From the IMG/VR virus record IMGVR_UViG_3300035145_003630: DNA of 64,000 nt, one strand, 5' to 3'. The DNA is from an uncultured virus (IMG/VR IMGVR_UViG_3300035145_003630). Its lineage: Duplodnaviria > Heunggongvirae > Uroviricota > Caudoviricetes. Within the stretch, counting starts at the first letter, position 1, and each line of letters starts with the position of its first letter. Positions 3,552-42,694 of this stretch are shown piece by piece. The notes below the pieces were generated by a model. It searched no databases. It saw nothing but the letters and a program-made list of their open reading frames with translations, and was not told where the DNA came from. A program made the translations under genes and the position numbers.

Positions 3552-3971
3552 TTAATTACAAAGGTCTGCTGACTCAACTGTTACACTTCCCCACACTTCA
3601 TCCACCAAATAGATGTCCACATTCTTTCTGTCAGCGTAGTAGGATTTCTTATACATTCCGTCCTTATCCAATCCTGACCACTCCAAATAGTTTACATAAC
3701 ATTCTTCAAATGATGACATATCTTTGATTTGCTCGTCCAAAAGGAAATGGTGAGCCCCATAGACCTTTCTACCGTAACCGTCCTTCTCAATCACGCAGGA
3801 GAAGGTATAGAGATAGTTTTTATTCGCTTTGTAAGTATTCTCACATGAAGTCAACCACAATACCGTATAAATCAAAAGTGAAAACTTCATCCCATACCAT
3901 ATCGCAGCCAACCACCAATATCTCTTTATGAAAGACTGAATCTTATTTATAAATCTTTTAATCATTGTCAA
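3552..3971 (-). CDS. hypothetical membrane/lipoprotein-like protein
   Basis: hydrophobic stretch ending LTSC (lipobox-like). Confidence 0.6.
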   Translation of the reverse strand: MTMIKRFINKIQSFIKRYWWLAAIWYGMKFSLLIYTVLWLTSCENTYKANKNYLYTFSCVIEKDGYGRKVYGAHHFLLDEQIKDMSSFEECYVNYLEWSGLDKDGMYKKSYYADRKNVDIYLVDEVWGSVTVESADLCN

Positions 3972-6012
3972 TAACCGTTAGGTTTCCATAATAATTTGTG
4001 TTATCTGTTCCCTTCCACAATTCCAATACATAGAAGTAAACACCGTCAGACACATTTCCACCATCCCAATCGTTTTGGTAGTCCTCGCTCTGATATACAA
4101 TTGTACCCCATCTGTTGTAGATTGTCAACTTTTTGATATCATATAAGTCAATATACCTAATCTCTAAGATATCATTCATTCCATCACCATTCGGTGTCAT
4201 CACATTTGGTACCACAATAATCGGTGGTTCAGGTTGGAAACAGGTTGTGTAATTACTCTCAGAAGTATCAACACCATTTGTAGTCACCACTTTGAAAATA
4301 TTATTCCCCACCTGTAATGTATCAAAATACCCACAGTATGTAGTATCAGTTATTGGTGACGGTAATAGTTTTTTCCACCCACCATTTATCTGAACCATAA
4401 TATCGTATTGTGCACTATCCCAACCATTGTAACTGTTCCAATTGAAACACAATGTATCACAACTACCATCCGTTTGTAACAGTATAGAGTGAACATCTCT
4501 TGTGGTGTCCATATCAAACGAATTATAAACCATATACACTTTATAGTTGTAACTTTGGTTGTCCACAAATGTAGCAGAGAAATCATCATAGAATAACTTA
4601 TCAGGATTGAATACATTACCCACTGACTGCCAACCCAAATCTTCACGTAGAATTACATATCTTTCAAATTGGTCTTTGAAGAATGTTGTAGTATCTACCG
4701 ACCATTGGACCTGAGGATGATTATCATTGATGACTGTAACGTTTTCTAATTCCATTACTAAGTTCACACAATCGTCAACATTGATAACCAATGTATCAAA
4801 TTCATCCATCGCAATACCACATTTGTTTAGGATAGTATTACCATCGTTACCCACTTTGGAATATAGGTAATACTTTCCATTCACCGCCAATGGTCTGTTC
4901 AATACAATGGTTAAAGAATCTGTCTCACCATTCACATTACAGTTACCAATAATGTTTTTGATTGCCCACGGCTGACCCGTTGGTGAAGTCATCCTGAAGT
5001 CTGTCCCATCAGGTGAAATAGAATAACAATCCAATTTGATATCCAAATAAATGGTCACCGCAGTATCTCCACAATCGTAATCCACTGTCGGTAATCCTGT
5101 GATTGTATCTATGTAATGACCTGGCGCGTCAAAGTCCAAACCAACACCATCCATCACCGCAGGAGCACATGTTGCTTCAATCTGAATCATCATATCTCTT
5201 GATGCCGTTCCCACCAAATTCCATACACCATACAAACTATCATACCTATATTCCTTTACCAACACTGAAGCAACATCAATCTCTTGCATCGTCGGTAAGA
5301 AGTTGATAAGACCTGTTGCAGGGTCCAAATTAAAATACGATGATGTAATAGGTTGTGATGCTGACCATCCTGCATCAAAGTTAATATCTGTACCAGGATA
5401 GTTACCTTCTCTACACTTAATCATTGAAAAGGCAATGGAGTCACCATCATTCTCAATAACCGTCTGTTTCCAATTGAATGGATTGTTTACACAGAACGCT
5501 CTTACTGGCTCAGAGACAAAGATAGGTGATGAGTTCTGACCCATTGTATTATTTAACTTTGCATCAAAGTAAAACCCGTCAGAACCAAATCCATTGGAAG
5601 TATTAATGTTATCAATACCACCAGGTCTACAACATTGTTGCCACCAAAACGTAAAATCATTACAGTTACCTGGCAAAGTGACAATCCCTTTATAGGCATA
5701 AATCTCCAAAGTCTTTGTGGTTGAAGATGGGACCACACAATCAAACAATGTCGGAGCAATACCACCTGAACCCGCCATCAATGTTACCGTTAAGCTCTGT
5801 TGGGTATAACAAGACGAGTTAATATACACCGTCTGAGTGTTTCCCATGGGAATTCCTGAGTTATCTCTATATATGCGGAGTAAGACCTCATATTGACGAG
5901 CAACGTTCGTAGAATCACCGATATAACGGTATTGGATATCTCCACCCGAAAGGTGAGAACCCATCATTCCAAATGAAATAAGGAATAAGAATAAAGTTAG
6001 AAACTGTTTCAT
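3958..6012 (-). CDS. secreted protein with gliding-motility-associated C-terminal (CHU_C, T9SS type B) sorting domain
   Basis: signal peptide, N-terminal SHLSGGDI, C-terminal VPNVMTPNGDGMND...IYNRWG...WDG...GVYFY. Confidence 0.85.
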   Translation of the reverse strand: MKQFLTLFLFLISFGMMGSHLSGGDIQYRYIGDSTNVARQYEVLLRIYRDNSGIPMGNTQTVYINSSCYTQQSLTVTLMAGSGGIAPTLFDCVVPSSTTKTLEIYAYKGIVTLPGNCNDFTFWWQQCCRPGGIDNINTSNGFGSDGFYFDAKLNNTMGQNSSPIFVSEPVRAFCVNNPFNWKQTVIENDGDSIAFSMIKCREGNYPGTDINFDAGWSASQPITSSYFNLDPATGLINFLPTMQEIDVASVLVKEYRYDSLYGVWNLVGTASRDMMIQIEATCAPAVMDGVGLDFDAPGHYIDTITGLPTVDYDCGDTAVTIYLDIKLDCYSISPDGTDFRMTSPTGQPWAIKNIIGNCNVNGETDSLTIVLNRPLAVNGKYYLYSKVGNDGNTILNKCGIAMDEFDTLVINVDDCVNLVMELENVTVINDNHPQVQWSVDTTTFFKDQFERYVILREDLGWQSVGNVFNPDKLFYDDFSATFVDNQSYNYKVYMVYNSFDMDTTRDVHSILLQTDGSCDTLCFNWNSYNGWDSAQYDIMVQINGGWKKLLPSPITDTTYCGYFDTLQVGNNIFKVVTTNGVDTSESNYTTCFQPEPPIIVVPNVMTPNGDGMNDILEIRYIDLYDIKKLTIYNRWGTIVYQSEDYQNDWDGGNVSDGVYFYVLELWKGTDNTNYYGNLTVIDND

Positions 6013-6959: not shown

Positions 6960-6986
6960 AAAAACCCCCACATTTCTGTGAGGGTT
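6960..6986 (-). terminator. intrinsic terminator ending the rhodopsin/kinase operon; identical to 10729..10755
   Basis: minus strand CCCTCACA-GAAA-TGTGGGGG followed by T-tract. Confidence 0.8.
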
Positions 6987-7005: not shown

Positions 7006-7599
7006 TTACTCCTTACTTTCAGATGCATATTTCACACCCATGATAGTTCCGACAATACTAAATGAGTTGGTAAGTAATATACCAAATAGATTGGACCACG
7101 TAGATTCCAATATTGGATTTTCCTGTCCACTTACCAAAGTATAAGCAAACAAACAAGTCGTAATCAGACCGACACCTAAGATAACCCATAACGCAACCTG
7201 AACAATCTTACCGATGAGTTGGAATTGTTTCTTTTTCTGCATCAAATCCAAGTCCTCCAAAGCCTTTTCCTTACCTTGTTCCGCCTCTTTTCTCAATGAT
7301 TCTGCAAGCTGCTCAGCGTTTTTAGCCTCATCCAAAGCCTCTTGAAGTTCAATCATCAAAGCATCATTTTCTTGTTGTTTTGCAACCAAGTCTTTGTTTT
7401 GTGATTGAACCTGTTTTGTTACCTGAAGACGTTTCTTTCTGGCAGTGACGTCTCTATCCTTACAAACTTTTAGATAATCTTGAAATTCTTTGTCACCCCT
7501 ATCCGCCTTGAGAACCTTTAATATATTTCCTTCCAAATATATTTTCTTCTCTTTGGCTAAAGTTAATAATACTTCTTTTACTTCAGGGGTTACTTTCAT
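7006..7599 (-). CDS. coiled-coil protein with two C-terminal TM helices
   Basis: long heptad region then two hydrophobic segments; ATGA overlap with rhodopsin gene. Confidence 0.8.
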   Translation of the reverse strand: MKVTPEVKEVLLTLAKEKKIYLEGNILKVLKADRGDKEFQDYLKVCKDRDVTARKKRLQVTKQVQSQNKDLVAKQQENDALMIELQEALDEAKNAEQLAESLRKEAEQGKEKALEDLDLMQKKKQFQLIGKIVQVALWVILGVGLITTCLFAYTLVSGQENPILESTWSNLFGILLTNSFSIVGTIMGVKYASESKE

Positions 7600-8177
7600 T
7601 TTTCATATTTGGTGTGGATGTATATTGCCACACCTAATTTAGCGGTTAAATCGACGATTGAATACAATACAATGGTTAGTAAAGAATCAGTCATAAAGTA
7701 TACGATAGGATAAAACATCCATAAAGTTAATACTCCAATATAAAAATTTAACTGTTCTTTCTTAATTCCATTCGCCAAACTCACGAAAGTATATATCGAA
7801 AACATGGTACCTATCAAACCACCAAAAAGTTTAGGTATAATGGATGCCTCACCCAAGAAACCAAATAATAACATTCCCAACATACAAGAAATTGACATTA
7901 ACAATGTTCCAATTTTTCTAAATTTAGGTTTTAAGAATGTATACATCTGATATATTAATATTGGAACAGTAAAAGTCCAATCCATATATCTCCATGTTCT
8001 AAGGTTTGTGGTATCATCCAAACCAAATATGTGTGACATATACATATACGTTAAACCTGCTATCAATAGAATCATCGCAGATAACTTACTCTGAAGTGAG
8101 TTGAACGAATTATATCCAAAATACAAACCTCCACCTAAAAATAATAAAGAGGTTGAGAACAAAATTTCACTAACCAT
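7596..8177 (-). CDS. microbial (type-1) rhodopsin, short, DTQ helix-C motif
   Basis: 7 hydrophobic helices; WRYMDWTFTVP (helix C), MLLFGFLGE (D), WMFYPIVY (F), DLTAK retinal-binding Lys (G). Confidence 0.88.
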   Translation of the reverse strand: MVSEILFSTSLLFLGGGLYFGYNSFNSLQSKLSAMILLIAGLTYMYMSHIFGLDDTTNLRTWRYMDWTFTVPILIYQMYTFLKPKFRKIGTLLMSISCMLGMLLFGFLGEASIIPKLFGGLIGTMFSIYTFVSLANGIKKEQLNFYIGVLTLWMFYPIVYFMTDSLLTIVLYSIVDLTAKLGVAIYIHTKYEK

Positions 8178-8680
8178 TACTCGTAATCTTTTAATCTATC
8201 GTTTAATTTTATATTTTCCATTCTGAGGTTAAAATTATCCTCTTGTTGTTGTTTGATTTTATCTTCCAAATCTTCTCTATACATTTTTGAGATATCGTCT
8301 TTGATTTTATCTTGTCTCTTAGATGCGATTTTTTGATTGATTCTTCTGATGTTACTCAAAGCACTGATAGCAATTACAACCCAACCCCAATTCATGTGAC
8401 TCCACGTGTTTGGGTCATAATCATAAAAGTGAATCACCACGAATAATATAGAAATAATACCATATAGATATCCAAATAGCTTTCTTCTCTCTAAACTACT
8501 ATACACCACTGAGTATAACGTACCAAACCCAATGAAAGAACTCATGATTCCAATATACCAAAGACTGGGGTTTTCCATCATCAATACCGCAGGGGCAAAG
8601 ATGAACCATATCAGACCTTGAATAATTTCGGTGGGTTCTGAATCATGGTAAGTTAATATGTGTAGTAATTTTTTTATCAT
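8177..8680 (-). CDS. 4-TM membrane protein with C-terminal coiled coil
   Basis: hydrophobic segments then YREDLEDKIKQ; overlaps rhodopsin start by one base. Confidence 0.75.
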   Translation of the reverse strand: MIKKLLHILTYHDSEPTEIIQGLIWFIFAPAVLMMENPSLWYIGIMSSFIGFGTLYSVVYSSLERRKLFGYLYGIISILFVVIHFYDYDPNTWSHMNWGWVVIAISALSNIRRINQKIASKRQDKIKDDISKMYREDLEDKIKQQQEDNFNLRMENIKLNDRLKDYE

Positions 8681-9118
8681 TTACTTATAAACTTTGAATG
8701 GATTTGTTTTATTTTTATACCCTTCATAATCATCTCTGAATTCTTCTAATCGTGGTTCAATATCATCAGACTTTATAATCCAAAACTGAGCACCAGCTTT
8801 CTTCGCCTTTTCAATTTCTTGGTTATCATCTGATGAGGATATGATTCCAATAACACATCCGTTTCCGTATTCATGGTTTATCTTGTCTACCATTTCAATC
8901 CCATTGAATGAAGAACCTATAATGTTTAAGTCAACGAATACACACTCAGGACGTTCGTGATTTACGTCATCAGGAAACCATTCCTTGAATTTTTTATCTG
9001 CTTCATCTGAAGAGTTTAGTGCCTCTAATGAAAGAGTTATATCTAAGATACTACATGCATCTTCGAAGACCAAGTGGAATAGGTCTTCATCATCAATTAA
9101 CATAAGTGAATTAATCAT
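8681..9118 (-). CDS. single-domain response regulator (receiver)
   Basis: LIDDED acidic pocket, VFVDLN phospho-Asp, IISSS, IIKS Lys; no output domain. Confidence 0.9.
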   Translation of the reverse strand: MINSLMLIDDEDLFHLVFEDACSILDITLSLEALNSSDEADKKFKEWFPDDVNHERPECVFVDLNIIGSSFNGIEMVDKINHEYGNGCVIGIISSSDDNQEIEKAKKAGAQFWIIKSDDIEPRLEEFRDDYEGYKNKTNPFKVYK

Positions 9119-9126
9119 GTCTATTT

Positions 9127-10377
9127 TTATTTAATTATAATCTTTATTTTAGTTCCGTAATTTGTTTTTTCGGCTGATATAGAAAATCCGTGTTCTTGTA
9201 GGATTGCAATACAAATGTTCAATCCCAATCCACTTCCACTTTCTTTTTGGTCTTTTTTTCTTGTATACGGTTTAGATAACTCTAAGAACTCACTCTGACT
9301 CATTCCTCGTCCATTGTCTTGAACAATCAAAGTTTTTTCATCTTCCATATAAATCATTACAGACTTTGTTGGACTATCGTTATATTTCAGACCATTACGA
9401 ATTAAGTTATCCACTGCGGTACAAAACAACGGTTCATTAACTTCAACTTCAGGTAATTCATCAATAACCACTTGTTTAACATATGAAGTTGAAGACAAAT
9501 AATCACTTAGGATGGTTTTCAAGTTTACTTTTTGTTTTTCTAATTGAACCTCTTGTTTAACTAAGTTGGTAAATTCCTTAACACCAGCATAAACTTTTTG
9601 TGTGTGTTTCAAACCTTCTTCCAACATTTTCAATGGAGCATCAATTTTCAATTCTTTAATTTGCTCTTCACTCATTCTTCTTTTCAAAGACCTCAACCCT
9701 CTCGGCATGTAAGTATTAATTCCTGAATGCATATCGTGTCTTAAAATCTTAGCCGCATGCTCCAAATAAGAATTCTTTTGATTCAAAACAACTTCAGCAT
9801 CGTGTTGTGAAGTAATATCTGTTGCAATTTTCAAAATTGTGGTGTAATCACCATTTTCATCCATGATAGGAGTATAATTTCCGAATAACCATTTTTTTGA
9901 ACCATCTTTTGCAACCCTTTCAAACTCACCAGTGACACTATTACCTTTTCTAAGTGTGTCCCAAAATTCTACATATTCTTTACTCTTAGCATATTCTGGT
10001 GTAACCATAGCACTGTGTGGTTTGTTTACTATATTCTTTTCAGGACATCCCATAATATCACAGAAGTTGTCATTAGCTGACAATATATTACCATCAATAG
10101 ACATGACCACAACTAAATTAGATTTACTAATAGCCTCCAATTGAGCATTCACGTTTTCCTCTTTGAGTCTAATGTTTTTTAATAGTTCATTCACCACCAT
10201 AAAAAATGGAGGCATAAACGCAATAACACAAGCATAACCAAATTGAGCCAAAAACATTGAGTTTTCACAAATACCAAAGACAATACAAGATTGCACAGAA
10301 AAGAATGTCAACATAATCAATGCCGCTATTCCTAATGATATCTTAGACCTTATTGATATGCTTGAAATCGCACTCAT
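9127..10377 (-). CDS. membrane-bound PAS-domain sensor histidine kinase
   Basis: 2 TM; PAS/PAC (DGNILSAN...KDGSKKWL...ATDIT); H-box LRHDMH; N-box DNLIRNGLKY; DNGRG; GSGLGL. Confidence 0.92.
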   Translation of the reverse strand: MSAISSISIRSKISLGIAALIMLTFFSVQSCIVFGICENSMFLAQFGYACVIAFMPPFFMVVNELLKNIRLKEENVNAQLEAISKSNLVVVMSIDGNILSANDNFCDIMGCPEKNIVNKPHSAMVTPEYAKSKEYVEFWDTLRKGNSVTGEFERVAKDGSKKWLFGNYTPIMDENGDYTTILKIATDITSQHDAEVVLNQKNSYLEHAAKILRHDMHSGINTYMPRGLRSLKRRMSEEQIKELKIDAPLKMLEEGLKHTQKVYAGVKEFTNLVKQEVQLEKQKVNLKTILSDYLSSTSYVKQVVIDELPEVEVNEPLFCTAVDNLIRNGLKYNDSPTKSVMIYMEDEKTLIVQDNGRGMSQSEFLELSKPYTRKKDQKESGSGLGLNICIAILQEHGFSISAEKTNYGTKIKIIIK

Positions 10378-10380
10378 TAT

Positions 10381-10581
10381 TTATAGTTCTGATTTCTTAA
10401 ATCCACACTTCCCGAAAAACCATTTAGAAGGACAAAATCCTGTCCATACTCCAACGTTCAACATGCAGATAACAAAGAGTACCACACCCCAAATATTTAA
10501 TACATATCCCACCAAAAGGACGATTGACATTAAAAGATAAACCATTCTCGTGTCAGTAATGTTATTTAATAAGTTTCTCAT
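10381..10581 (-). CDS. small 2-TM membrane protein, YgaP/DUF2892-like
   Basis: two TM helices then TGFCP motif; start at ATG 10581 overlapping upstream stop. Confidence 0.65.
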   Translation of the reverse strand: MRNLLNNITDTRMVYLLMSIVLLVGYVLNIWGVVLFVICMLNVGVWTGFCPSKWFFGKCGFKKSEL

Positions 10582-10700
10582 AATGATATTGTTTGTATGA
10601 ATGCAATTTTTAATCTTATCCACAACCTTTGCATCATAGGTAGGGATTTGAACTCTTCAGTTCTGAAAATGTCTTCCAATTCTTTTATTTCTTTGTCCAT
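10578..10700 (-). CDS. 40-aa hypothetical protein, first gene of the operon
   Basis: manual translation MDKEIKELEDIF...IQTISL; TATTTATA just upstream; ATGA overlap with next gene. Confidence 0.6.
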   Translation of the reverse strand: MDKEIKELEDIFRTEEFKSLPMMQRLWIRLKIAFIQTISL

Positions 10701-10728
10701 ACTCTATAAATATATTGTGACTACAAAT

Positions 10729-10755
10729 AAAAACCCCCACATTTCTGTGAGGGTT
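10729..10755 (-). terminator. intrinsic terminator; identical to 6960..6986
   Basis: same 27-bp hairpin plus T-tract after 10778..12139. Confidence 0.8.
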
Positions 10756-10777
10756 TATAATAATTACGAATTTTTAA

Positions 10778-12139
10778 TTAGTAACCAATCTCTTCTTCGT
10801 ATTCTTCTTCAATGTCGTATACCGTTGGTTGGTTTCTTCTACCCAAATCTTCAGGTTCCGCATCAAATCCTTTGATGGTGTAATCTTTCCAGAAGAACCC
10901 GTCTTTGGTTGTCTTCCAATCGTTGAAGTTCTGTAACGCTTCAGCCATCTGTAAGCTGAAATCTGTAGGAACCGCATCCTCATCAAACCTACTATTACAA
11001 TCATAGTTTGAGAACCATCTCATCCACTCAGGACTACCAGGTTCGTATTGTGATGTCGTAGCGTCAAACAATGGACTGATAGGTGAAATCTGTGGGTATT
11101 CCGCAGTTGCATGACAGCTATAACAAGAACTCATTGGGTTGTCCATAGGTCCATTCAATCTACCGTTCCATCCCAAATGTGAAGGAGGTAATTCATTTCT
11201 GTCAGGGTTGATGATAGTTTGTTTCAAATCTAAGTTGATGTATGTGCTATCAGGAACAGGGTTAGATGTGTTCGTAGTATCCTCAGGGTCGTCTCCCCAC
11301 ATGATACCAACAGGAACCAAGTTGTAGAACTTATCGCTCTTGTTCATCGCACCATTGTATTTGTAGTTACCCAAAACCCATCCACTCGGAGCACGGAAAT
11401 CTTTAACCATAACATCCATTTGGATTAATACAACTTCAATCTCTTCTCTATCCAACGTACCAAAATCATACGTCGCATACGCTTTCCACCACAATCCATT
11501 CTGTAGATAAGGAACCTGCTCTTCAACAATGTCCTTTGGAACAGACAAGAACAATAACTTAAACATTACCGTTCCTTCAGGGAAACCTCCCATATCTTCC
11601 ATCTTCTCAGCACTCGGATGTAAGTGGTCTTCCCATACTTTACCAATGGTGTAACCACCTTTGTCGTTGTATAGACCAACTGCCCATGCACCACCTGTGG
11701 AATAAGTGTAGTCAGGACCCAACTGACCTGCTTGTACTGGAGCTTCTTTCGTCAATCCGTGGAAACCTTCTCTACCGTTCGCAGAATAGTGTTGCCATGG
11801 CATGTGATACCAGTCTCTAACTTTATTCAACTCAGGTCTGAAAGCAACATCAGTGTTACCTTCAAAACAATACCTTTGTACTGCCAATAGATATTCCTTC
11901 CAATTCTCTTGGTAGTCAATCTCAAAGAACTTAGGTAATTCCGTCTCAGGCATCGTAGTAGGATAGTCCTGACTTAATCTGAATACAGGAATGTTGTCTT
12001 TCTCTACTGTACCAGGGTCAACCATAAACCCGAAATCAGGAAACGGTTGTTGTTCTTTTTTGTCACCTCTTGATACGTAAATTAAGACGGTAACCACCAT
12101 CAATATCAATACCAAAATAGACCATTTTTGTTTGCTCAT
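10778..12139 (-). CDS. exported/membrane-anchored protein with single CxxCH heme c motif
   Basis: N-terminal TM/signal; CYSCH near C-terminus after GRLNGP.DNP. Confidence 0.7.
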   Translation of the reverse strand: MSKQKWSILVLILMVVTVLIYVSRGDKKEQQPFPDFGFMVDPGTVEKDNIPVFRLSQDYPTTMPETELPKFFEIDYQENWKEYLLAVQRYCFEGNTDVAFRPELNKVRDWYHMPWQHYSANGREGFHGLTKEAPVQAGQLGPDYTYSTGGAWAVGLYNDKGGYTIGKVWEDHLHPSAEKMEDMGGFPEGTVMFKLLFLSVPKDIVEEQVPYLQNGLWWKAYATYDFGTLDREEIEVVLIQMDVMVKDFRAPSGWVLGNYKYNGAMNKSDKFYNLVPVGIMWGDDPEDTTNTSNPVPDSTYINLDLKQTIINPDRNELPPSHLGWNGRLNGPMDNPMSSCYSCHATAEYPQISPISPLFDATTSQYEPGSPEWMRWFSNYDCNSRFDEDAVPTDFSLQMAEALQNFNDWKTTKDGFFWKDYTIKGFDAEPEDLGRRNQPTVYDIEEEYEEEIGY

Positions 12140-31575: not shown

Positions 31576-32154
31576 ATGAGAGTTAACTCCTTAGTCATTG
31601 ATGATTTTTATAACAACCCATATGAGGTAAGAGAATTTGCATTGGAACAAGACTTCAATGTTGAAGGGAACTTTCCTGGTTACAGAACATTACCATTTGC
31701 CAACGATTCAATCAAAGAAACTATTGGTAATGTTATTAGACCTTTTGCAGGAGAAATAACATGGTGGGGTGGTGAATATACAGGAGCGTTTCAATACACC
31801 ACCGCACAAGACCGTTCGTGGATTCACTCCGACTCTTATACTGATTGGGCGGGTGTTTTATATTTAACACCTGATGCACCAATCACCGCAGGAACAGGAA
31901 TATTCAAACACAAACACTCAGGTTTGATGCATTGGGATTATGCACTCCATGAAAATGATGACTACGACCCACAATCACCAATGGAAACAGCAAAAGACAT
32001 AACAAAATGGGATTTAGTAGATAGGTTTGGTAATATTTTCAATAGGTTAATACTTTACAGAGCGGATAATTTCCATATATCTTTAGATTACTTTGGTAAA
32101 GACCTAAACGACGGACGACTATTTCAAGTCTTCTTCTTTAATACAGAAAACTAA
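31576..32154 (+). CDS. 2OG-Fe(II) oxygenase-like protein (DUF6445-like)
   Basis: VIDDFY.NP, WIHSD, WAGVLYLTP, FNRLILY..D.FH, RLFQVFF. Confidence 0.85.
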   Translation: MRVNSLVIDDFYNNPYEVREFALEQDFNVEGNFPGYRTLPFANDSIKETIGNVIRPFAGEITWWGGEYTGAFQYTTAQDRSWIHSDSYTDWAGVLYLTPDAPITAGTGIFKHKHSGLMHWDYALHENDDYDPQSPMETAKDITKWDLVDRFGNIFNRLILYRADNFHISLDYFGKDLNDGRLFQVFFFNTEN

Positions 32155-32156
32155 TA

Positions 32157-32888
32157 ATGAAAAACTTCTTTAATCAACCTTTATTGAACCCCGAACACAA
32201 CGTTAACTCTTTACGAGAAGAGTTTGAGAAAAATAGAGTTGTCGTTATCAAGGATTTTTTGAATCCTGTAATCGCTGAAAGACTACACACATGGTTTACT
32301 GAAGAGATGCCGAAAGATTGGTGGAGAATATCTTCGTACCCAAAATTGGATGGAGGTGATGGTTTCGACTTGGTTCCTTTCGATGATACGTTTAGTGAAG
32401 ATATCAGAACTATGTATACACATGCCATCACTAACTTCAAAGATAATAAGTTTTCATACAACTTTCATAGAACAATCAATGACCATGAAGATACATGTGA
32501 TTGTTACGAATGTGGTTTTAGAGAGGCTTTAATAAGTACTGAGATACTAAATTTCTTGAACGGTGTTACCAATCAAGGATTAACTGATACTGATGAAGTA
32601 TTCGGTGCGGTGTATTTACCTGGTGACTTTTTATCACCACACCAAGACTCACCTAACGGAACATTAGGTTTTGTATTACAACTTACAAAAGATTGGAAAC
32701 CTCAATTCGGGGGTAACTTACACTTTATGGATGGTCCTGATGGTAACGTAGAAAGAATTGAGGTACCTCAGTTTAATACTCTTACAATTTTTGATTTACC
32801 TAAAGGTGTTGGTAAGTGGCATTATGTATCCACAGTATCACCAGGTGTTGAAGAATTAAGACTCACCTATACGGGCTGGTATAAATAA
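32157..32888 (+). CDS. 2OG-Fe(II) oxygenase (prolyl-hydroxylase-like)
   Basis: Y.PGDFLSPHQD, W....GG.L, P.FN.L..F, HYVS.V, RL..TGW. Confidence 0.85.
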   Translation: MKNFFNQPLLNPEHNVNSLREEFEKNRVVVIKDFLNPVIAERLHTWFTEEMPKDWWRISSYPKLDGGDGFDLVPFDDTFSEDIRTMYTHAITNFKDNKFSYNFHRTINDHEDTCDCYECGFREALISTEILNFLNGVTNQGLTDTDEVFGAVYLPGDFLSPHQDSPNGTLGFVLQLTKDWKPQFGGNLHFMDGPDGNVERIEVPQFNTLTIFDLPKGVGKWHYVSTVSPGVEELRLTYTGWYK

Positions 32889-33317
32889 GTCAGGACGTAT
32901 AAAGATTGACAATTCGGTCAATGTCTCCACACAATAACACTTTGAATAAGATGTTTCATAATCGTTTTTACTTTTAAATGCAAGTATCAACGGTTGGAAT
33001 ATCTTATCAAAGTCTTTCCATAATAAATCATAATTAATACCACACTCCATTACCAAATCATAAACCTCATGGTGATAAGATTCAACAATTTTAATGTCGG
33101 GGTATTCGTTTTCAAACATGACCAATTGATTAGGTATGTCTATACCTTTTAACTTATCATGTTTTTTGACATAAGAAGGATATAAAGCAAGGTGGTCGTA
33201 AAACCTTTGAGATTCTTCGTCATATTCACCTTGCTTCATAAAGTAAACCATTAAAATAAATGGTTCTCCTCCCTCAAATAATTCGTGGTAGTTTTCTTTA
33301 TCGTACCTAACAAACAT
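32856..33317 (-). CDS. hypothetical protein
   Basis: 153-aa ORF following oxygenase 33319..33936. Confidence 0.65.
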   Translation of the reverse strand: MFVRYDKENYHELFEGGEPFILMVYFMKQGEYDEESQRFYDHLALYPSYVKKHDKLKGIDIPNQLVMFENEYPDIKIVESYHHEVYDLVMECGINYDLLWKDFDKIFQPLILAFKSKNDYETSYSKCYCVETLTELSIFIRPDLFIPARIGES

Positions 33318-33318
33318 A

Positions 33319-33936
33319 TTATTTATAGTTAGGTCCTGAAATCCAAGCCACCAATGATTTTCTATTACCTTCAGTGACAGGCAACACTCTGTGTAAGATG
33401 AATGACGGGAAGATAATTACCCCACCTTTTTTCTTCGGTAATACTAAGTCTCTCGAACCAACTTTGAGTTCTACGTCTCCACCAACATAATCTTCTTCAT
33501 CACTCAACTGAATAATGATTGATAGTTTCCTGTGTGATACACCTGGACCGATGTCAGCATGCCATGAGTAATGACCCTCTTGTTCACCAAAGTATTGTGT
33601 ATACTGTAACGTATCACCAAAACCAATGAGGTCAAAGTTCCATCTCATTTCTTCATTAGCTTCCAATGTACCCAAAGCTAAACGGTCAAAAATCCATCTT
33701 GTATTATCACTAATATCAATCCAACCTACGGTACTCTTTCTAATTTCAGGTACTATGTGAAGACCGTCTTCACCACCACCAACTTCACCTTCCGATTTTT
33801 CTGTTAGTTCACCCCATTGGATAATGTAATCCAATTCTTCTTCTGTGAATAAATTTTCGAAATAATAATAGTGTAAGTGTTCGACCATTCTGTTTCTGTA
33901 GTAATCTACAAATGGGTCTGAGTAAATGTATTCCAT
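33319..33936 (-). CDS. 2OG-Fe(II) oxygenase (PKHD/P4H-like)
   Basis: HYSWHAD, RKLS, YVGG, FPSFILHRVLPVTEGNRKSLVAW. Confidence 0.9.
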   Translation of the reverse strand: MEYIYSDPFVDYYRNRMVEHLHYYYFENLFTEEELDYIIQWGELTEKSEGEVGGGEDGLHIVPEIRKSTVGWIDISDNTRWIFDRLALGTLEANEEMRWNFDLIGFGDTLQYTQYFGEQEGHYSWHADIGPGVSHRKLSIIIQLSDEEDYVGGDVELKVGSRDLVLPKKKGGVIIFPSFILHRVLPVTEGNRKSLVAWISGPNYK

Positions 33937-33991
33937 AACTTTAATTTTTACAAATATAGATTATTTTTTAGTCAAAATAAAGTAGACGATA

Positions 33992-35476
33992 ATGAAAATT
34001 GTAGACACATTTATGTTGAATGGTGAACTCGACTTATTAGAGTTCAGGTTGGAGTATTTATACGACCACGTAGACCACTTTGTATTAGTGGAATCAAACG
34101 TCACACATAGAGGTACACCCAAACCTATATTCTATTCTTTGTATAAGGATAGGTTTGAAAAGTATCAAGATAAAATTACACACATCATCACCACTGACAT
34201 CCCTAAAAAGGTCCATTTATCAGACTTAGTCAAAAACCCATTTTGTGAGGGTGATGATTACATCTACCGTGAACAACTTCAAAGAAGTGAAATCTTGGAC
34301 GGTTTAAGAGAGTTGGAATTGGACTATGAAGATATTGTATTGGTTTCAAATATTGATGAGTTACCGAGTATCCAATCTTTTGATAAACTCCCTCAGTTCT
34401 TATCTATATCACCATTGAAGTATAAACAGAAGTGGTTGGTTTGGAACCACACGATGAAAAGACGTAGAAAGTGGCAAGGAACTTGTGCATTTCAATACAC
34501 CCATTTAATTCAAAATCCTAACGAAATAAATTCTATGCGTTTGGTGGACGTAGAAGAATACCCCAACGAATATTTTACTTTGGAATCTGGATGGCACTTG
34601 AATTGGTTCAATGGTGTAGACTCATGTATCAGTAAAATATATTCCACTTCTTTGAGAGACAGAGACCAACATTTTTACTTTAGGAGAAAGAGTTTCAGGG
34701 ACTTAGCTCTCGATAAAAGATATCCGAGTATTAATACTTCCCATATTGAATCTTTGGAACCAACCTCAAAATCTGAATTACCTGAAAAGTATGAATTACT
34801 CCCATTCTTTGACCCAACAAAAGAACCTGTTGTTTATGACAGTTTCATCTATAATGGAGAGAAAGAAGCACTATTGATTAGATTATACGAATTATACAAT
34901 ACTGTTGACTACTTTATCATCCTCGAAGGAAACTATAATTCAGATTTCAAATTCAGTGAATTAAAAGATGAAGTTTCAGAATACGATGATAAAATAATCT
35001 ATGTACAGTTGGAAGACTATACAAATGTTTCAACCTCAGTTGAAGAACATGAAATCAATATGTTACAAAAGACTTTAGAATTTTTAGAGTTGAAAGATAA
35101 TGACTTCATATACTATTCCCAAATAGAGTGTATACCTTCATATGAAACATTAGAAGTAAATTACTTTGATTTTGATAGGTACGAATTAGAATTTGTGTCT
35201 TTGAAAATGAGATGGTTTTTTGAGGATTTTGAACACGAACTTAATGATGATTATTACGGAACTATACTAACCACATGGGGTAATCTAAAAGACTCGTCTC
35301 TTTACAATTTTTACATGTCGAGAGACGAGTCAGTATATTCTATCATTCAATTTAGAGGATGGTATCTATGTAACTTCTTTAAGAACGAATACTCACTTTA
35401 TGAAAGTGATGTTATCCAAGAAGTTAGTGATTGGGATTACTTCCCTCAGTACTTTGAAGATTACCTCTTAGATTAA
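33992..35476 (+). CDS. GT17-like glycosyltransferase, tandem duplicated domain
   Basis: two copies of D.F..NGE...L..RL..LY..VD.F...E; GWHL.W and GWYL motifs. Confidence 0.78.
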
Positions 35477-38400
35477 TCCCTTTTCTCTTGCTCTATTTTC
35501 TAAATCTACTACTTGTAACTCTTTTGTTACGAGTAGTTTGTTTTGCTGTTGAAGTGCTTCTGTAAGTACCGCAATCATAATTGGGTAGTTTACTAACTTA
35601 GTACCGTCAGGTGATTCTGACACTGCCTGTGGGAAATATTCTTCAACTTCCTGTGCAATGAAACCGACTGTCGGCGCATCTGTCGCTTCTTGAGGTACTC
35701 CATTTACAATCTCTCTCCATTGGAAACTAACCCCTCTCATCTTTAAGATACGGTCTAACGCATCTTCAATCTGTCTATAGTTTTTCTTCAACCTTCTATC
35801 TGAAGGTGGTCCTGGAGGACCAGCATAACCTTTAGGTCCTTTATTACCCTGTGGTCCGATGTAACCCTTAGGTCCTTGTGCACCTGGACTGGCCGCAGGT
35901 CCTTGTGAACCGTATGGCCCTCTGGCACCTTTATTACCTTTAGGACCTGTAGAACCTCTATCACCTTGTCCACCAGGAGCACCAACATAACCTTTGTCCC
36001 CTGTCGGACCTGTAGAACCGTTAGGACCCACTGGTGATGCACCTGTTGAACCACCTGGTCCTTGGTCCCCTTGTGGACCTCTGAAACCTTTAGGTCCTTT
36101 ATATCCTGTTGGTCCTTTTGGACCTGGGTTGGCATTACCTTTATTTCCTTTAACAGTATTTGCAGGACCTTTTTCACCTACATCACCTTGGTCGATTGGC
36201 CCTTTATAACCTTTGACCCCTTTTGTCCCAGGTACACCTGTTGCACCACCTGGACCTGGATTGTTAGCACCTGTAGCACCACCATCACCAATAGGTCCTC
36301 TATCACCTTGGACACCTCTATAACCTTGTACCTTTGGTCCTTTGTCACCAGTAGGTCCTTGTGGTGAATTACCTTGAACCCCTTTAATACCTTTAGGTGA
36401 ATTTCCTTGAGGACCTTTCGCACCTCTATAACCTTTAACACCGATATAACCTTTAGGCCCTTTAGCACCTTTATCACCCGTACCGCCCGTCGCACCTCTG
36501 TTACCTGTAGCACCTTTATATCCTGTAGGTCCTTTTGGTCCGTCAGGTGCTGTTGGTCCTTTATAACCTTTTGGTCCTTTGGTTGTTGAGGCAGGTCCTT
36601 TATCACCTTTTTGACCGAGGTCCATTGGTCCTTTATAACCTTTGACACCCTTATCACCTGTTGGTCCTGTAGGTCCTTTTGGCCCTGTATTATTGGCACC
36701 TGTTGGTCCTGTCGAACCTTGCGGTCCTCTGTCCCCTTGTGGACCTTGAGGTGATGCCCCTGTTGAACCACCTGGCCCTTGTGGTGAATCACCTGTTGAA
36801 CCACCTGGTCCTTGCGGTGAATTACCTGTAGGTCCTTTATTACCTTGGGTACCTTTATAACCCTTCGGTCCTTTAGCACCGACACCACCTTTATATCCTT
36901 TTGGTCCTTTTGGTCCTGTTGGTGCGACTGGTCCTTTGATACCTTTTGGTCCTGTTGGTGCAGTTGGTCCTTTATCACCACCTGGTCCTGTAGAACCTGT
37001 CGGACCTTTAGGTCCAACGTTGGCATAACCTTTAGGTCCTTTTGGACCTGGATTCGGTGCTCCGACTGGACCCCTCGCACCTTGAGTAGAATCACCTACA
37101 CCACCTTGTGGTCCCTGACCACCAGTATTACCTCGTGGTCCTTGAGGAGAGTCCCCCGTAGAACCTCCTGGTCCTTGCGGTGAATTACCTATATAACCTT
37201 GTGGACCTTTAGGTGAACTTCCTTGAGTACCTTTGTTACCCTTGGCTCCTTTGAAACCTTTTGGACCTTTTGGTCCGTCAGCACCTGTAGCACCTCTATT
37301 ACCTTTTGGTCCGTCGTTTCCTGTCGGTCCCTTATCACCACCACCACCTGCTGGTGCAGTTGGTCCTTTATCACCACCAGGACCTGTTGACCCTGTTGGA
37401 CCTTTTGGACCTACGTTAGCATATCCTTTAGGACCTTTTGGACCTGGATTTGCATCACCTGTTGGTCCTCTACCACCTTGAGTGGAGTCACCCACACCAC
37501 CTTGAGCACCTTGTCCTCCACGAGGACCTTGTGGACCCTGAGGTGATGCACCTGTTGAACCACCACCACCTTGCGGTGAGTTCCCTTGTGCACCTTTATT
37601 ACCTTTTGGTGAATTACCTTGAGCACCTTTTTGACCCTTATTACCTTTGGTACCTTTATTACCTTTCGAACCAACTCCCCCTTTGAAACCCTTCAAACCT
37701 TTCGGTCCATCGTTTCCTGTAGGTCCCTTATCACCAGCACTTCCTGCCGGTGCTGTTGGTCCCTTATCTCCACCAGGACCTGTCGGACCTGTTGAACCAC
37801 CTGGTCCCTGATTAGTATCACCAATTGGACCTTTAGCACCAGGATTAGAATCACCCTGAGGTCCTTTTGGACCTGGATTTGCGTCACCTGTTGTACCTCT
37901 GTTACCTTTTGTTGAATCACCAACACCACCTTGAGCACCTTGAGCTCCTTGACCACCCTGTGGTCCTTGAGGTGATGCACCTGTTGCACCCTGTGGTCCT
38001 TGTGGTGAATCTCCTGTGGAACCACCACCACCTTGTGGAGAAGAACCTATAAAACCTTTAGGACCCTTAGGTGAACTACCCTGAGCACCTTTTTGTCCTT
38101 TATTACCTTTAGTACCTTTGATACCTTTGGCTCCAGTACCCCCTTTAACACCTTTGACACCCTTAGGACCATCGTTTCCTGTAGGTCCTTTGATACCCTT
38201 GGCTCCTTGTGCACCTTTCTGACCTTTCTGACCTTTATCACCAGTCGGTCCTTTGTCACCACCTGAACCAACAACTGGTTCACCTTTTTGTCCTTTGTCA
38301 CCTGTATGGTTATCACCCGCACCACCTTGAGGTCCTTGTGTCGATGCTCCTGTAGGCCCTGTTGGTCCTGTCGAACCACCTGCACCGTTATCACCTACAC

Positions 38401-39124
38401 CACCTTGAGGTGAGTTACCCTGAAAACCTTTATCTCCTTTTGGTGAATCACCACCGTCACCAGTGGCACCTTTGGTGGATGAACCTTGTGGACCTTTAGC
38501 ACCTTGTGGGGAGTTACCCTGAGAACCCTTTGTACCCTTTTGACCTTTTTGACCTGCTTCACCTTTGAAACCTTTGAGACCTTTCGTACCTTTTTGTCCT
38601 TTGTCTCCGTCTAAAGCAATTTCACCTTTCTGACCTTTATCTCCTGTAGCACCTTTGAGACCCTTTTGTCCTTTTTCACCAACAGAACCTTGTGAACCGG
38701 GTGAACCTGGTCCACCCTTTGGACCCTTTTGTCCTTTCTCAGCAGAAAGGGAAGCCCCTTTTGTACCTTTTGTTCCTTTATCACCAGTAGGACCTTTATC
38801 TCCTTGGTCTGCTGTTGATGCTGTAGGACCAGCAATACCTTTGACACCTTTTTGACCTGTAGCGTTTACGGCCGCTGGACCTTGCCACACACCTGAAGAA
38901 TCAATTCTATCAGTACCACCAATTTTTACTTTACCACTACCCTCGACGTTGAATCGAGAGTCTGTTTCATATAATGGATTTTTTCTGAGTATAATTGCAT
39001 TATCTGTTCCCGCAAATGATAATGTATCAGCACTTGCAACATATGTAAGATTTATTGCCGATGCGGTACTTCCAGAAAACTGAAATACACCTTCACCTGG
39101 TACTATTCTAATATTCTTACCCAT
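35468..39124 (-). CDS. collagen-like fibre protein with C-terminal intramolecular chaperone (peptidase S74)
   Basis: about 1000 aa of Gly-[10 protein letters not shown]...[12 protein letters not shown]. Confidence 0.92.
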
Positions 39125-42100
39125 TATACTACTACTTCTTTGAGTCTATTTATTCTTTCTCTGATATCAGTAATCATTTCCATGTGCTCTTGGACAGTAC
39201 CAATACCTAAGGCAGTAATCAAATCATACTTAAGAGAATGAATACCCCTATCATCTTTAAATACAACTTCAGGAAGAACTTCTTCAACTTCTTGTGCAAT
39301 AAATCCAATAGATTCACCTTTCAAATATGGTCTATGTGTTTTAGTAAAGTCGTCATCATTCCATTCAAAATAAAGACCTTTCAACATTAAAAGTTTTTCT
39401 AAGTTACCCTTCAATCCTTTTAAGTTATCTTTATAACGAATATCCGATGCCGGACCCTGTGCACCCGTTGGACCTTTCGAACCCTGTGGACCTCTATTAC
39501 CTTGAGGACCTTTTGCACCTGGAGAACCCACAGCATCATATCCACGAGGTCCTCGATATCCTTTATCACCTAAAGGTCCTTGTGGTTGATACCCTTTAGG
39601 TCCTTTATTCCCCTTAGCATTTGAAGTAGGTCCTTTATTACCTTGACCCCCTTGAGGTCCTCTCGGTCCTGGTGGGCCGTCATTCCCTTGAGCACCTCTA
39701 CTACCTTTGTTACCTACATAACCTTTAGGTCCTTTATCATTTGAGTTGGCACCTGCAGCACCACCCGGTCCCTGTGGTGATGCACCTGTTGGCCCTTTAG
39801 GACCCGCATCACCCTGAGGTCCTCTTGGTCCCTGTATTTTCGGTCCCTTATCACCTGTAGGTCCTTGTGGAGAAGGTCCCTGACCACCTCTACCACCTTT
39901 TGGTGATGAACCCTGAGGTCCTTTAGCACCTCTATAACCTTTTACACCTAAATAACCTTTAGGTCCTTTAGTACCTTTATCACCAACACCTCCAGTGTTA
40001 CCTCTGTTGCCTGTGGCTCCTTTAGCTCCGATAGGTCCTTTCGGACCGTCAGGGGCCGTTGGACCTTTATATCCTGTAGGTCCTTTATCGTTCGAAGATG
40101 GTCCCTTATCTCCTTGGTCACCTCGGTCTATTGGCCCTTTGTAACCCTTCACACCTTTTGTACCTTCAGGACCCTGTGAACCACCAGGACCAGGGTTATT
40201 AGCACCTGTAGGTCCCGTAGAACCTTGAGGGCCATAATCACCCTGCTGACCTATACCACCTTGAACCTTCGGTCCTTTATCACCTGTAGGTCCTTGTGGT
40301 GAGCTACCTTGTGCACCTCTTGGTCCCTGTGGGGAATTACCCGTAGGACCTTTATTACCAATAAACCCTTTGGCTCCGATATTACCTTTAGGTCCATCAG
40401 CACCTGTAGCACCTCTATTACCTTTAGGTCCGTCAGCACCTGCAGGACCTCTGTTACCCTTAGGTCCGTCAGGAGCAGTATATCCTTTAATACCCTTAGG
40501 TCCTTTGTCACCCGCCGAACCTTGAGGTCCTTGATTTGTATCACCAGTCGAACCACCAGGTCCTTGTGTTGACGCACCTACAGGACCTTGTGGACCTGGA
40601 GACGATGCACCTACACCACCCTGTCCTCCTTGGTTACCCTGTGAACCCTGAGGACCCTGTGGAGACGCTCCTGTTGAACCTCCTGGCCCTTGTGGTGAAG
40701 AACCTATAAAACCTTTCGGTCCTTGAGGTGAATTACCTGTCGGTCCTTTATTACCTTTTGCTCCTTTGAAACCTTTAACACCTTTAGGTCCATCGGCACC
40801 TGTTGCACCTCTGTTACCCTTAGCCCCTAAATTACCTTTCTGACCTTTTTGACCAACAGGTCCTCGTGGGGCTGTTGGCCCTTTATCACCACCAGGTCCC
40901 GTGGAACCTGCAGGTCCTTGTGGTCCTGGGTTGGCATAACCTTTAGGTCCTTTTGGACCCGGATTAGCATCACCTTGAGGTCCTCTGGCACCTTGAGTTG
41001 AGTCTCCAACACCACCTTGACCTCCTTGGTTACCTTGACTACCCTGTGGTCCTTGTGGTGAAGCACCTGTTGAACCACCTGGCCCTTGAGGAGATGCCCC
41101 TCTAAATCCTTTAACACCTTGAGGGGAGTTACCTTGAGCACCTTTATTACCTTTGAAACCTTTAAGACCTTTATTACCTTTAGGTCCATCGGCACCTGTA
41201 GCACCTCTGTTACCTTTAGCACCTAAGTTACCTTTCTGACCTTTTTGACCAATTGGACCCGCAGGTGCTGTAGGTCCTTTATCACCACCAGGTCCCGTAG
41301 AACCTGTTGAACCTCCTGGTCCTTGATTTGTATCACCTGTCGGCCCTTTTGGACCTGGATTGGCGTCACCTTGTGGTCCTCTACTACCTTTTGTAGAGTC
41401 ACCGACTCCACCCTGTCCACCTCTCGGACCTTGACCACCTTGCGGTCCTTGTGGTGATGGTCCTGTCGAACCTTGAGGACCCTGAGGAGAAGTACCTGTA
41501 TCACCCTGAGGTCCTTGTGGGGAAGCTCCGATAAACCCTTTAGGTCCCTTTGGTGAACTACCTTGGGTACCTTTCTGACCTTTATTACCTTTTATACCTT
41601 TAGTACCTTTTTGTCCTTGGGCTCCTTTCTGACCTTTATTACCTTTAGGTCCGTCGGCACCTGTAGCACCTCTGTTACCTTTAGCACCTAAGTTACCTTT
41701 CTGACCTTTGTCACCTGTTGCACCTGCTGGCGCTGTTGGACCTTTATCACCACCAGGTCCCGTAGAACCTGTTGACCCCTGAGGACCTTGATTGGTATCA
41801 CCCTTCGGTCCTTTTGGACCTGGGTTGGCATCTCCTGTTGGACCTTGTGGTCCCTGATTAACATCACCTGTAGAACCACCCGCACCTGTTGGTCCCACAC
41901 CACCAGTTCCACCTCTCGGTGAGTCACCCGTTGACCCTTGAGGTCCTACGATAGTATTTCCTTTCGGACCTTTATTACCTTTAATTGAACTACCTTGTGG
42001 ACCTTTACTACCTTGTCCACCCTGAGAACCCTTCGTACCCTTAGTACCTTTAGGACCATCAGGAGCCGTAGGTCCTTTATCACCTTTATTACCGGCACTA

Positions 42101-42663
42101 CCTGTAGTTCCCTTGGTACCTTTTTGACCTTTTGGTGCGGTTGGACCTTTAATACCTTTGGTACCTTTATTACCTTTTTGACCCTTCTCACCACCATCAC
42201 CTGTGGCACCTGCTGAACCTACATCACCTGTAGACCCTTGGAATGAATCCCCCGTAGAACCTTTAGTACCTACAACATCCTCACCATCAGAACCTTTTTG
42301 TCCTTTGAACAATTCACCTTTTGAACCCTTAGGTCCTGTGGCTCCTTTTTGACCTTTGATACCCTTTTCACCTGTAGAACCTTTTGAACCTGGTGTAACA
42401 CCATCACCTTTGGAACCTTTAGAACCAACTGGACCCTGTGCACCACCACCACCGATACCACCTTTAACACCTTTTGATGCTTGGTACCCCTTATCACCCT
42501 GAGTACCTTTAACACCTTTGATATTTGTAGTAACACCTGACCATACACCGTCTTCACCAACAACTTGATTTGTACCGATACGTAGACCTTTATTCATCTT
42601 AGTAGGTGAATAAATCTTCATCCTTGTTGCCGCATCTGCTATGTGAAATAAGTTCTGTTTCAT
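39124..42663 (-). CDS. collagen-like fibre protein with C-terminal S74 chaperone
   Basis: Gly-X-Y repeats; SDIRYKDN...[15 protein letters not shown]. Confidence 0.92.
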
Positions 42664-42694
42664 GTTATATTATAAATATCTAAAAATCTTTCTT

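Follow-up and report, generated by a model that had tools for sequence, protein, structure and literature searches.

Can a tailed bacteriophage read light through a receptor of its own? The question is raised by a stretch of 64,000 nucleotides from an uncultured virus of the Caudoviricetes (IMG/VR record IMGVR_UViG_3300035145_003630; the whole stretch is referred to below as the window), in which a type-1 rhodopsin gene lies within a tightly coupled seven-gene operon on the minus strand (7006-10712) that also encodes a histidine kinase, a stand-alone receiver and several membrane proteins. Rhodopsins are known from giant viruses of algae, and none was found described for tailed phages. An earlier, sequence-only reading of the window had interpreted the operon as a candidate light-sensing two-component system, an interpretation that is partly supported here. 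As judged by gene content and neighbourhood, the core of the operon is a phage-only two-component module, widespread in large phages and made up of the kinase, the receiver and a coiled-coil protein with a two-transmembrane (2-TM) hairpin (the hairpin protein), and the rhodopsin has joined this module in a small minority of these phages, the present one included. This phage may sense light. Our tentatively favoured reading, to which we give slightly less than an even chance, is that the rhodopsin would be an accessory photosensor that feeds the phage relay and possibly makes lysis light-dependent.

In the published full-text literature, with supplementary tables and most subscription journals lying outside the search, neither a tailed-phage rhodopsin nor this two-component module was found. 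The available text of a review of giant viruses and jumbo phages treats viral rhodopsins only under giant viruses of eukaryotes (PMC13359090). That of a study of 224 jumbo phages makes no mention of rhodopsins, and the divergent receiver domain described there is never placed in histidine-kinase signalling (PMC7824862). Virus-borne rhodopsins and sensory rhodopsins with a membrane partner are known kinds; the setting in a phage-only relay is new.

The rhodopsin and its relatives

The rhodopsin matched the Pfam family Bac_rhodopsin (PF01036) with 53.5 bits (cut-off 24.6), and its AlphaFold2 model (mean pLDDT 91.7, pTM 0.87) consisted of seven helices (residues 2-22, 28-53, 59-79, 89-110, 116-135, 140-160 and 166-192) connected by very short loops. 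Comparison of the model with the PDB gave 268 matches at E <= 0.001, with rhodopsins leading. Twelve residues (R63, Y64, D66, W67, T70, P72, Q77, W153, Y156, P157, D176 and K180) were invariant in 25 family sequences; they cover the arginine, both counter-ion aspartates, the retinal pocket and the Schiff-base lysine of helix G (K180), and the motif is D-T-Q. Eight of them (R63, D66, W67, W153, Y156, P157, D176 and K180) align with the same positions of proteorhodopsin and of OLPVRII, a rhodopsin of viral group 2 from Organic Lake phycodnavirus. Both known proton-donor positions are without a carboxylate, Q77 standing at the position of D96 in bacteriorhodopsin (BR) and S33 at that of the viral Glu42. 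Ratios of dN/dS against four relatives ranged from 0.07 to 0.15 and indicate strong purifying selection on the gene.

The best solved relative was OLPVRII, both by profile (E 3e-28; 102 bits versus 69.6 for proteorhodopsin, the next family) and by fold (PDB 6sqg; Foldseek TM 0.84-0.85). Like the phage protein, OLPVRII is a short virus-borne type-1 rhodopsin in which the Asp, Thr and Lys are kept. In the available text of its description, the Glu42 donor in helix B is called fully conserved in both viral rhodopsin groups, whereas the phage family has a nearly invariant Ser33 at this position, and in the sequence alignment G16, Y19, S27 and L14 of the phage protein stand at E26, R29, R36 and F24, which belong to the pentamer and its pore (PMC6821725). 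The phage protein further differs in having Gln77 for Val86 and Pro157 for Gly, in forming a separate clade, in being carried by a tailed phage and not by a giant virus, and in its linkage to a kinase. As judged by alignment and tree, the phage rhodopsin is outside the OLPVRII group. The tree, which was quick and unrooted, placed the 24 phage-type sequences in a clade of their own with a support of 100 and a long branch, and rhodopsins from giant-virus metagenome-assembled genomes grouped with cellular ones on the other side.

The family is small. A library of 1.84 billion representative sequences yielded 14 at E <= 1e-30, all of 119-235 aa, after which the scores dropped from 129 to 98 bits. 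A word-indexed protein search with the rhodopsin returned 52 proteins, of which only one, a distant one, bore a source name. No close relative was present in one genome each of 185,579 cellular species (the best match reached 30% over part of the length), no family member was present in 50,697 phage records, and only one giant-virus protein among the predicted viral structures matched the rhodopsin at E <= 0.001. Over these collections the clade appears restricted to viral or metagenome contigs.

Linkage with the kinase and the phage-wide module

Thirty distinct contigs other than the window carried a rhodopsin of this family, 19 with the kinase and 26 with at least one module gene. Among the contigs that were adequately flanked the kinase was present in 19 of 21, and the seven contigs with a module gene and without the kinase were short or cut at the relevant side. 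Seen from the rhodopsin, then, the linkage proposed by the sequence-only reading is kept, and it is kept through five gene orders. Order A, that of the window and of most relatives, runs 40-aa ORF, small 2-TM protein, kinase, receiver, four-transmembrane (4-TM) protein, rhodopsin, hairpin protein; order B is the same without the 4-TM protein; order C is 4-TM protein, kinase, rhodopsin; order D is rhodopsin followed by a 301-aa kinase without PAS domain; and order E is rhodopsin, a kinase with two PAS domains, receiver, hairpin protein. Wherever the rhodopsin and kinase genes abut they overlap by 4-8 nt.

Order D was found in L033 (6995-8478), a contig with a GC content of 60.6%, against 29-36% for the others. 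The two genes overlap there by 4 nt, and the kinase keeps the membrane hairpin and the catalytic core and has no PAS domain, which leaves the hairpin as its only candidate input part. In L033, as in the L005 type, rhodopsin and kinase are direct neighbours, and the available flank showed neither a receiver nor a hairpin gene; the C-type records, in which no receiver was found, are 4-6% fragments. Pairwise distances of rhodopsin and kinase were correlated (r 0.90-0.91, 11 lineages) and the coarse branching orders of the two trees agree, so the two genes have long been inherited together.

The kinase of the window matched PAS_3 (1.5e-12) and HATPase_c (4.3e-14) of Pfam, and its ATP-binding stretches DNLIRNG, DNGRG and GSGLGL (N, G1 and G2 boxes) are invariant, the catalytic half as a whole being highly conserved. 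No Pfam HisKA match was obtained, and an unusual, invariant His-rich helix (H207, H214 and H217), which is the candidate site of phosphorylation, precedes the ATPase domain; neither a HAMP nor an MCP signal domain was detected in the protein. At its N-terminus only a few residues, forming a turn, link two membrane helices, and there is almost no periplasmic loop. In known intramembrane-sensing kinases such a loop-less hairpin goes with input from a membrane partner.

The receiver scored just above the cut-off for Response_reg (30.5 against 30.2 bits), and all 14 sequences compared keep D9, D10, D63, S94/S95 and K116. No other protein of the module is as conserved, the mean column identity being 85% and dN/dS 0.01-0.02. 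In the model of the hairpin protein (pLDDT 83) a small domain at the N-terminus is followed by a single helix that runs for about 120 residues and by another that leads back. The stalk varies in length between copies; a basic stretch and the polar second TM helix, in which Ser, Thr, Asn and Gly abound, are invariant. No solved fold matched it at E <= 0.001 (best E 3.5, all coiled coils), and three copies searched against Pfam and PHROG gave no holin match. In each of the five gene orders receiver and hairpin protein either both occur or are both missing, which suggests that the hairpin protein may be the target of the receiver.

Two further membrane proteins belong to the operon. The small 2-TM protein occurs equally in loci without rhodopsin, and so does the 4-TM protein; neither is therefore a rhodopsin-specific transducer. 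The description of the 167-aa protein as 4-TM holds for three clear hydrophobic stretches, the fourth being weaker; the Atlas gave no lead for it (best score 0.80). The label YgaP-like (PF11127) for the small 2-TM protein was rejected and comes down to a resemblance: the match stayed below the Pfam cut-off (E 0.036, 14.6 bits, cut-off 25.3) and was obtained for none of three close copies and for one of four copies in all.

Relatives of the kinase are encoded on at least 591 viral stretches. Nearly all of the best 80 loci have kinase, receiver and hairpin protein in that order, with the small 2-TM and 4-TM proteins as optional members. In a set of 80 distinct kinase sequences (17 with rhodopsin and 63 without) 74 loci had the receiver and 72 had the hairpin protein. 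On the kinase tree, whose 79 rows exclude the partial sequence of L032, a minimum of four changes is required to account for the rhodopsin label, three of them forced by well-supported branches; the sampling is uneven, since it was the search with the rhodopsin that supplied the deep lineages bearing one, and those without it were drawn from the 80 loci most like the window. GenBank phage records contained no real match to kinase or rhodopsin, and the hairpin protein occurs in 30 Atlas clusters, all of them viral. The kinase-receiver-hairpin module is noteworthy in itself, being abundant in large phages and the subject of no paper that was found.

Clustering of the flanking ORFs of the 80 distinct kinase loci revealed a holin-like or endolysin neighbour at 43 of them. 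A holin-like protein is encoded about 460 nt 5' of the kinase in 35 loci (Phage_holin_4_1, a weak 18.1 bits with a cut-off of 22.2; the copy in contig L040 reached 33.6 bits), an 82-aa membrane protein in 22, a PG_binding_1 plus Amidase_2 endolysin in 21 and a Peptidase_M15_3 endolysin in 10. Three of the 17 rhodopsin-bearing loci have a lysis-type neighbour, and the window is not among them. Ribonucleotide reductase genes recur too, so the adjacency to lysis genes may partly be plain genome order. The idea of a role in lysis, put forward in the sequence-only reading, gains context from these neighbours and from one rhodopsin that lies inside a lysis cassette.

These lysis regions also bear on the reading in which the rhodopsin would partner the membrane hairpin protein and not the kinase, for instance as a light-controlled, antiholin-like brake or trigger of a hairpin that forms pores or perturbs the membrane, with the phosphorelay as a separate second input. 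The rhodopsin gene directly precedes and overlaps the hairpin gene in the two commonest orders, and an invariant second TM helix with many small and polar residues would suit such a partner. We consider this reading improbable, however: the rhodopsin abuts the kinase in three orders, in two of which no hairpin gene was seen nearby, and the hairpin protein matched neither a holin family nor a solved fold.

Light sensing weighed against ion transport

In the photosensor reading the rhodopsin would be an added light input to the module. Light-driven helix movement would be passed within the membrane to the loop-less 2-TM hairpin of the kinase, as from sensory rhodopsin II (SRII) to the helices of HtrII, and autophosphorylation of the kinase and phosphotransfer to the receiver would be altered. 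The receiver would then act on the hairpin protein, and the membrane or the lysis programme of the infected cell would become light-dependent. Retinal would be supplied by the host. The pairing of a bare rhodopsin with a PAS-less kinase, the adjacency kept through rearrangements and the absence of both donor carboxylates are the features from which we infer a photosensor.

Known photosensory systems offer partial parallels. In the haloarchaeal pairs SRII-HtrII and SRI-HtrI a receptor without a carboxylate donor is encoded beside a two-helix partner that feeds a His-Asp relay. The phage rhodopsin resembles SRII in having Q77 at the BR-D96 position, which is not exclusive to sensors, and in its adjacent, co-inherited gene for a two-helix partner. 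Unlike HtrII, the phage partner is itself a histidine kinase (with a PAS or with no sensor domain) and not a CheA-recruiting HAMP-MCP protein; its putative output would be a stand-alone receiver with a hairpin protein and not the flagellar motor, and the pairing is a predicted one. Algal histidine-kinase rhodopsins (HKR1 and others) couple rhodopsin, kinase and receiver in single fused eukaryotic proteins; in the phage rhodopsin and kinase would be coupled likewise, but as separate genes. In monoderm bacteria heliorhodopsins stand beside PAS/HisKA/HATPase_c kinases, and the available text of the report derives a sensory role from the repeated neighbourhood; these proteins differ from the phage rhodopsin in belonging to another family with inverted topology, in being encoded by cellular genomes and in a looser linkage within 10 kb (PMC8612252). 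As for the output, holin T and antiholin RI of phage T4 adjust the time of lysis to a sensed signal (lysis inhibition), according to the text available; that system has no kinase, receiver, photoreceptor or sequence likeness to the phage operon, and the parallel is functional and hypothetical (PMC11413866).

Several results weigh against the photosensor reading. The rhodopsin was present at 4 of the best 80 kinase loci, from three contig lineages, and on 7 of the at least 591 kinase-bearing viral stretches, so that about 99 in 100 viral stretches have the module without it. The view of the operon as a dedicated light-sensing system does not survive this distribution, and the kinase hairpin was not made for the rhodopsin, because the module works without rhodopsin in most phages. 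Three contigs with usable flanks (L036, L039 and L040) have the rhodopsin without kinase or any other module gene; a fourth, L037, is only 1 kb long and uninformative. Partial Mantel coefficients between rhodopsin distances and those of the kinase were 0.41 for the membrane part and 0.33 for the catalytic core. Searches turned up no longer relatives in which rhodopsin and kinase are fused, which is weak evidence, and the two are separate genes here. No Blh gene (PF15461) for retinal synthesis was detected in a complete 297-kb relative of the window (see below), where a control search was equally silent and the result is uninformative. To these are added a rhodopsin in a lysis cassette and two published findings on transport, which are taken up with the main rival below.

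Two further lines of evidence were tried and set aside. With partial Mantel values of 0.41 and 0.33, the membrane part of the kinase was not separated from the core. A hairpin signature (a 'CENS' turn and a Met after PPFF) that seemed to track the rhodopsin was dropped as evidence, there being only two contrasts; the kinase hairpin of L003 is overall no closer to that of the window than to rhodopsin-less hairpins. On two of the kinase-less contigs the rhodopsin is preceded by a protein of 203 aa whose N-terminus has a membrane helix (phrog_38864; L039 6374-6985 and L036 1802-2416) and which may be another partner of it.

In the main rival explanation the rhodopsin would use light to transport ions, whether by pumping protons outward, as the D-T-Q proteorhodopsin of SAR11 does, or as a channel similar to its relatives in giant viruses; we regard it as a substantial possibility, though short of probable. 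It would change the membrane potential of the infected cell and would travel with the module as part of a late membrane and lysis gene set, its link to the kinase being indirect, through proton-motive force or redox state read by a flavin-type PAS domain or through the triggering of holins by loss of potential. Like pumps, the phage protein retains the acceptor Asp, the arginine and the second Asp. According to the available text of the report on it, the SAR11 protein pumps protons outward in E. coli, for which reason the D-T-Q motif is no argument for a sensor; this pump shares the motif but is of ordinary length and cellular, and the phage family is a distinct clade (PMC5864233). The deep-water SAR11 D-T-Q proteorhodopsin is also discussed in 10.1101/2022.08.01.502354. 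OLPVRII, the closest solved structure, has been proposed as a channel in the text available to us (PMC6821725).

The lysis cassette of L040 (2887-5204) points in the same direction. It encodes, in this order, a holin (phrog_2359), a 95-aa membrane protein, the rhodopsin, the 82-aa membrane protein, the Peptidase_M15_3 endolysin and the Phage_holin_4_1 protein, and it has no kinase. The PAS domain of the window kinase, a putative cofactor binder, would also suit an indirect link, its best solved matches being the FAD-binding PAS domains of MmoS (3ewk; E 1.2e-28) and Aer (8dik; E 1.1e-16); by eye, the stretch of the window kinase aligned with the flavin-contacting residues of Aer differs from them. 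The phage also carries many host-like metabolic genes. A free-standing pump, however, need not stay beside a kinase through five rearrangements, the PAS-less kinase of L033 would be unable to read redox state, the donor- and pore-defining residues of OLPVRII are absent, and neither known donor position has a carboxylate.

The fullest form of the photosensor reading, in which a phage-only photoreceptor feeds a relay with a hairpin effector set among lysis genes and the bursting of the host is gated or timed by daylight, we hold to be rather unlikely. If it is true, bacteriophages would gain their first described photosensory system and their first described rhodopsin, and a molecular route would lead directly to the day-night patterns that viral lysis shows in surface waters. 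If the rhodopsin is a sensor, phages would join the light-reading organisms with a virus-owned two-component relay, tied to lysis genes, as the read-out, and with four small proteins one could test directly why the lysis and production of viruses in surface waters keep pace with the day. Even as a pump or channel, it would represent a class of type-1 rhodopsins (187-213 aa, with very short loops) smaller than any other natural one seen here, a new type of auxiliary gene for phages and a candidate compact optogenetic scaffold.

Operon layout, source genome and neighbouring genes

The gene content and order given for the operon by the sequence-only reading were borne out, all seven ORFs being found in place (Table 1), with successive intergenic distances of -4, 3, 8, 0, -1 and -4 nt. 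It is an operon of the late type and belongs to a jumbo tailed phage. Apart from kinase, receiver and rhodopsin, the other four ORFs matched no family at a credible level in Pfam and other profile searches.

Table 1. Genes and candidate regulatory elements of the rhodopsin operon and its borders (window coordinates)
Feature	Coordinates	Strand	Remarks
Terminator-like hairpin after the upstream 453-aa gene	10731..10756	-	20-nt core same as in the operon-closing hairpin
Promoter-like motif ATATTTATAG, containing TATTTATA	10704..10713	-	4 nt 5' of the first ATG
40-aa ORF, no hydrophobic stretch	10578..10700	-	Recurs 5' of the kinase in some related loci
Small 2-TM protein	10381..10581	-	66 aa from ATG 10581; 80 aa from GTG 10623; optional module member
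Histidine kinase, 416 aa	9127..10377	-	N-terminal 2-TM hairpin, PAS, putative atypical DHp, HATPase_c
Stand-alone receiver, 145 aa	8681..9118	-	Response_reg; catalytic residues complete
Membrane protein, 167 aa, C-terminal coiled coil	8177..8680	-	3-4 hydrophobic segments; optional module member
Type-1 rhodopsin, 193 aa	7596..8177	-	R63, D66, T70, Q77, W153, Y156, P157, D176, K180
Coiled-coil protein with C-terminal 2-TM hairpin, 197 aa	7006..7599	-	Third core module member
Terminator-like hairpin closing the operon	6963..6986	-	20-nt core identical to that of the 10731..10756 hairpin

Both regulatory elements claimed earlier were recovered. The terminator is represented by the hairpin at 6986-6963, whose 20-nt core occurs exactly twice in the window, with no copy expected by chance. 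The promoter claim concerned TATTTATA, which lies within the longer ATATTTATAG; allowing one mismatch or fewer, the latter has 21 matches in the window against 9.4 +/- 3.2 expected, about a twofold enrichment. Copies stand just 5' of the genes starting at 12571, 14997, 24875, 29610, 51293 and 60174 and also precede two tail-fibre genes (starts 42663 and 48375); example sites, located from a few to 30 nt before the gene starts and on the coding strand, are 12558, 24891, 29624, 42670, 48404, 51313 and 60189. The motif is probably a phage promoter element, and it resembles the -7 box of Bacteroidota.

The contig is viral, as had been assumed, and is a section of a tailed phage of about 300 kb. 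Of its 51 ORFs, 44 had tblastn matches in collinear order in a single viral record of 297,164 bp (G001), which CheckV rates as 99% complete and which has a large terminase. Rhodopsin-bearing viral fragments of 14-60 kb received completeness ratings of 4-20%, which implies genomes of about 300 kb or more. Many window proteins match PHROG families, and the window encodes three collagen-repeat tail fibres with an endosialidase-chaperone domain, thymidylate synthase, DNA methylases and 2-oxoglutarate (2OG) oxygenases; no tRNA gene was found in it.

In G001 the operon lies at 276-280 kb, whereas in the window it is placed between homologues of the 4-7 kb region of G001, and it moves whole, rhodopsin included. 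Identical bracketing hairpins and this different place in an otherwise collinear relative make the operon look like a relocatable cassette. In G001 (L265) it is followed by a hairpin different from that of the window, and the core of the window's flanking hairpins is absent from the 20-kb G001 piece with the operon. The different positions and the identical hairpins would also fit a passenger gene (moron) without a functional tie to its neighbours, or one that yields no working photoreceptor for want of retinal from the host, and the failure to detect a retinal-synthesis gene in the complete relative (with its silent control) could be read in the same way. Such a passenger is very improbable in view of the strong purifying selection on the rhodopsin gene, the invariance of all retinal-pocket residues, a linkage repeated across deep divergence and a cassette that carries its rhodopsin along.

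Near-identical DNA was detected in 18 sequencing runs (share >= 0.39) from 13 studies, one of them possibly the source of the window itself. The run labels were wetland, wastewater, seawater, marine, estuary, aquaculture and outdoor; habitat labels of runs with less than half of the words (except X4, X19 and X20) were kept out of the evidence. The operon was confirmed by a 3,174-nt contig from an independent seawater run, which covers 7645-10693 with 99 differences, and by an identical 2,566-nt contig from a wetland run. In two seawater RNA libraries from one study, contigs with about 95-97% identity covered parts of every gene, the rhodopsin gene among them, except some stretches, which is a weak hint of expression because DNA carry-over was uncontrolled, parts were uncovered and there was no silent control stretch.

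The host of the phage is probably a member of the Bacteroidota, as suggested by a type-IX-secretion sorting domain and a TonB-dependent receptor encoded by phage genes. The sorting domain (CHU_C) belongs to a 684-aa protein (3958-6012) that also occurs in relatives L020, L022 and L023 and has no match in the 297-kb relative. The receptor (Plug plus beta-barrel; 52405-54939) has a copy with 75% identity in that relative.

Just 5' of the operon, a 453-aa protein (10778-12139) carries a membrane anchor at its N-terminus, and a haem-binding-like CxxCH motif was spotted in it by eye; the protein matched no family and nothing in related loci or G001. The three collagen-repeat tail-fibre genes, with Peptidase_S74 chaperone, are very long. 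Near them are encoded 2OG-Fe(II) oxygenases, a GT17 glycosyltransferase and a PLOD-type glycosyltransferase (31576-48375 and 57017-58456 for fibres and enzymes together), and these oxygenases and glycosyltransferases may form a set that modifies the collagen-like fibres. Host-like genes of the window encode a glutamine-synthetase-like protein and a full-length DnaJ (50166-51293 and 62197-63153), and another host-like gene, for GroES (Cpn10), was found in relative L005 (3782-4081).

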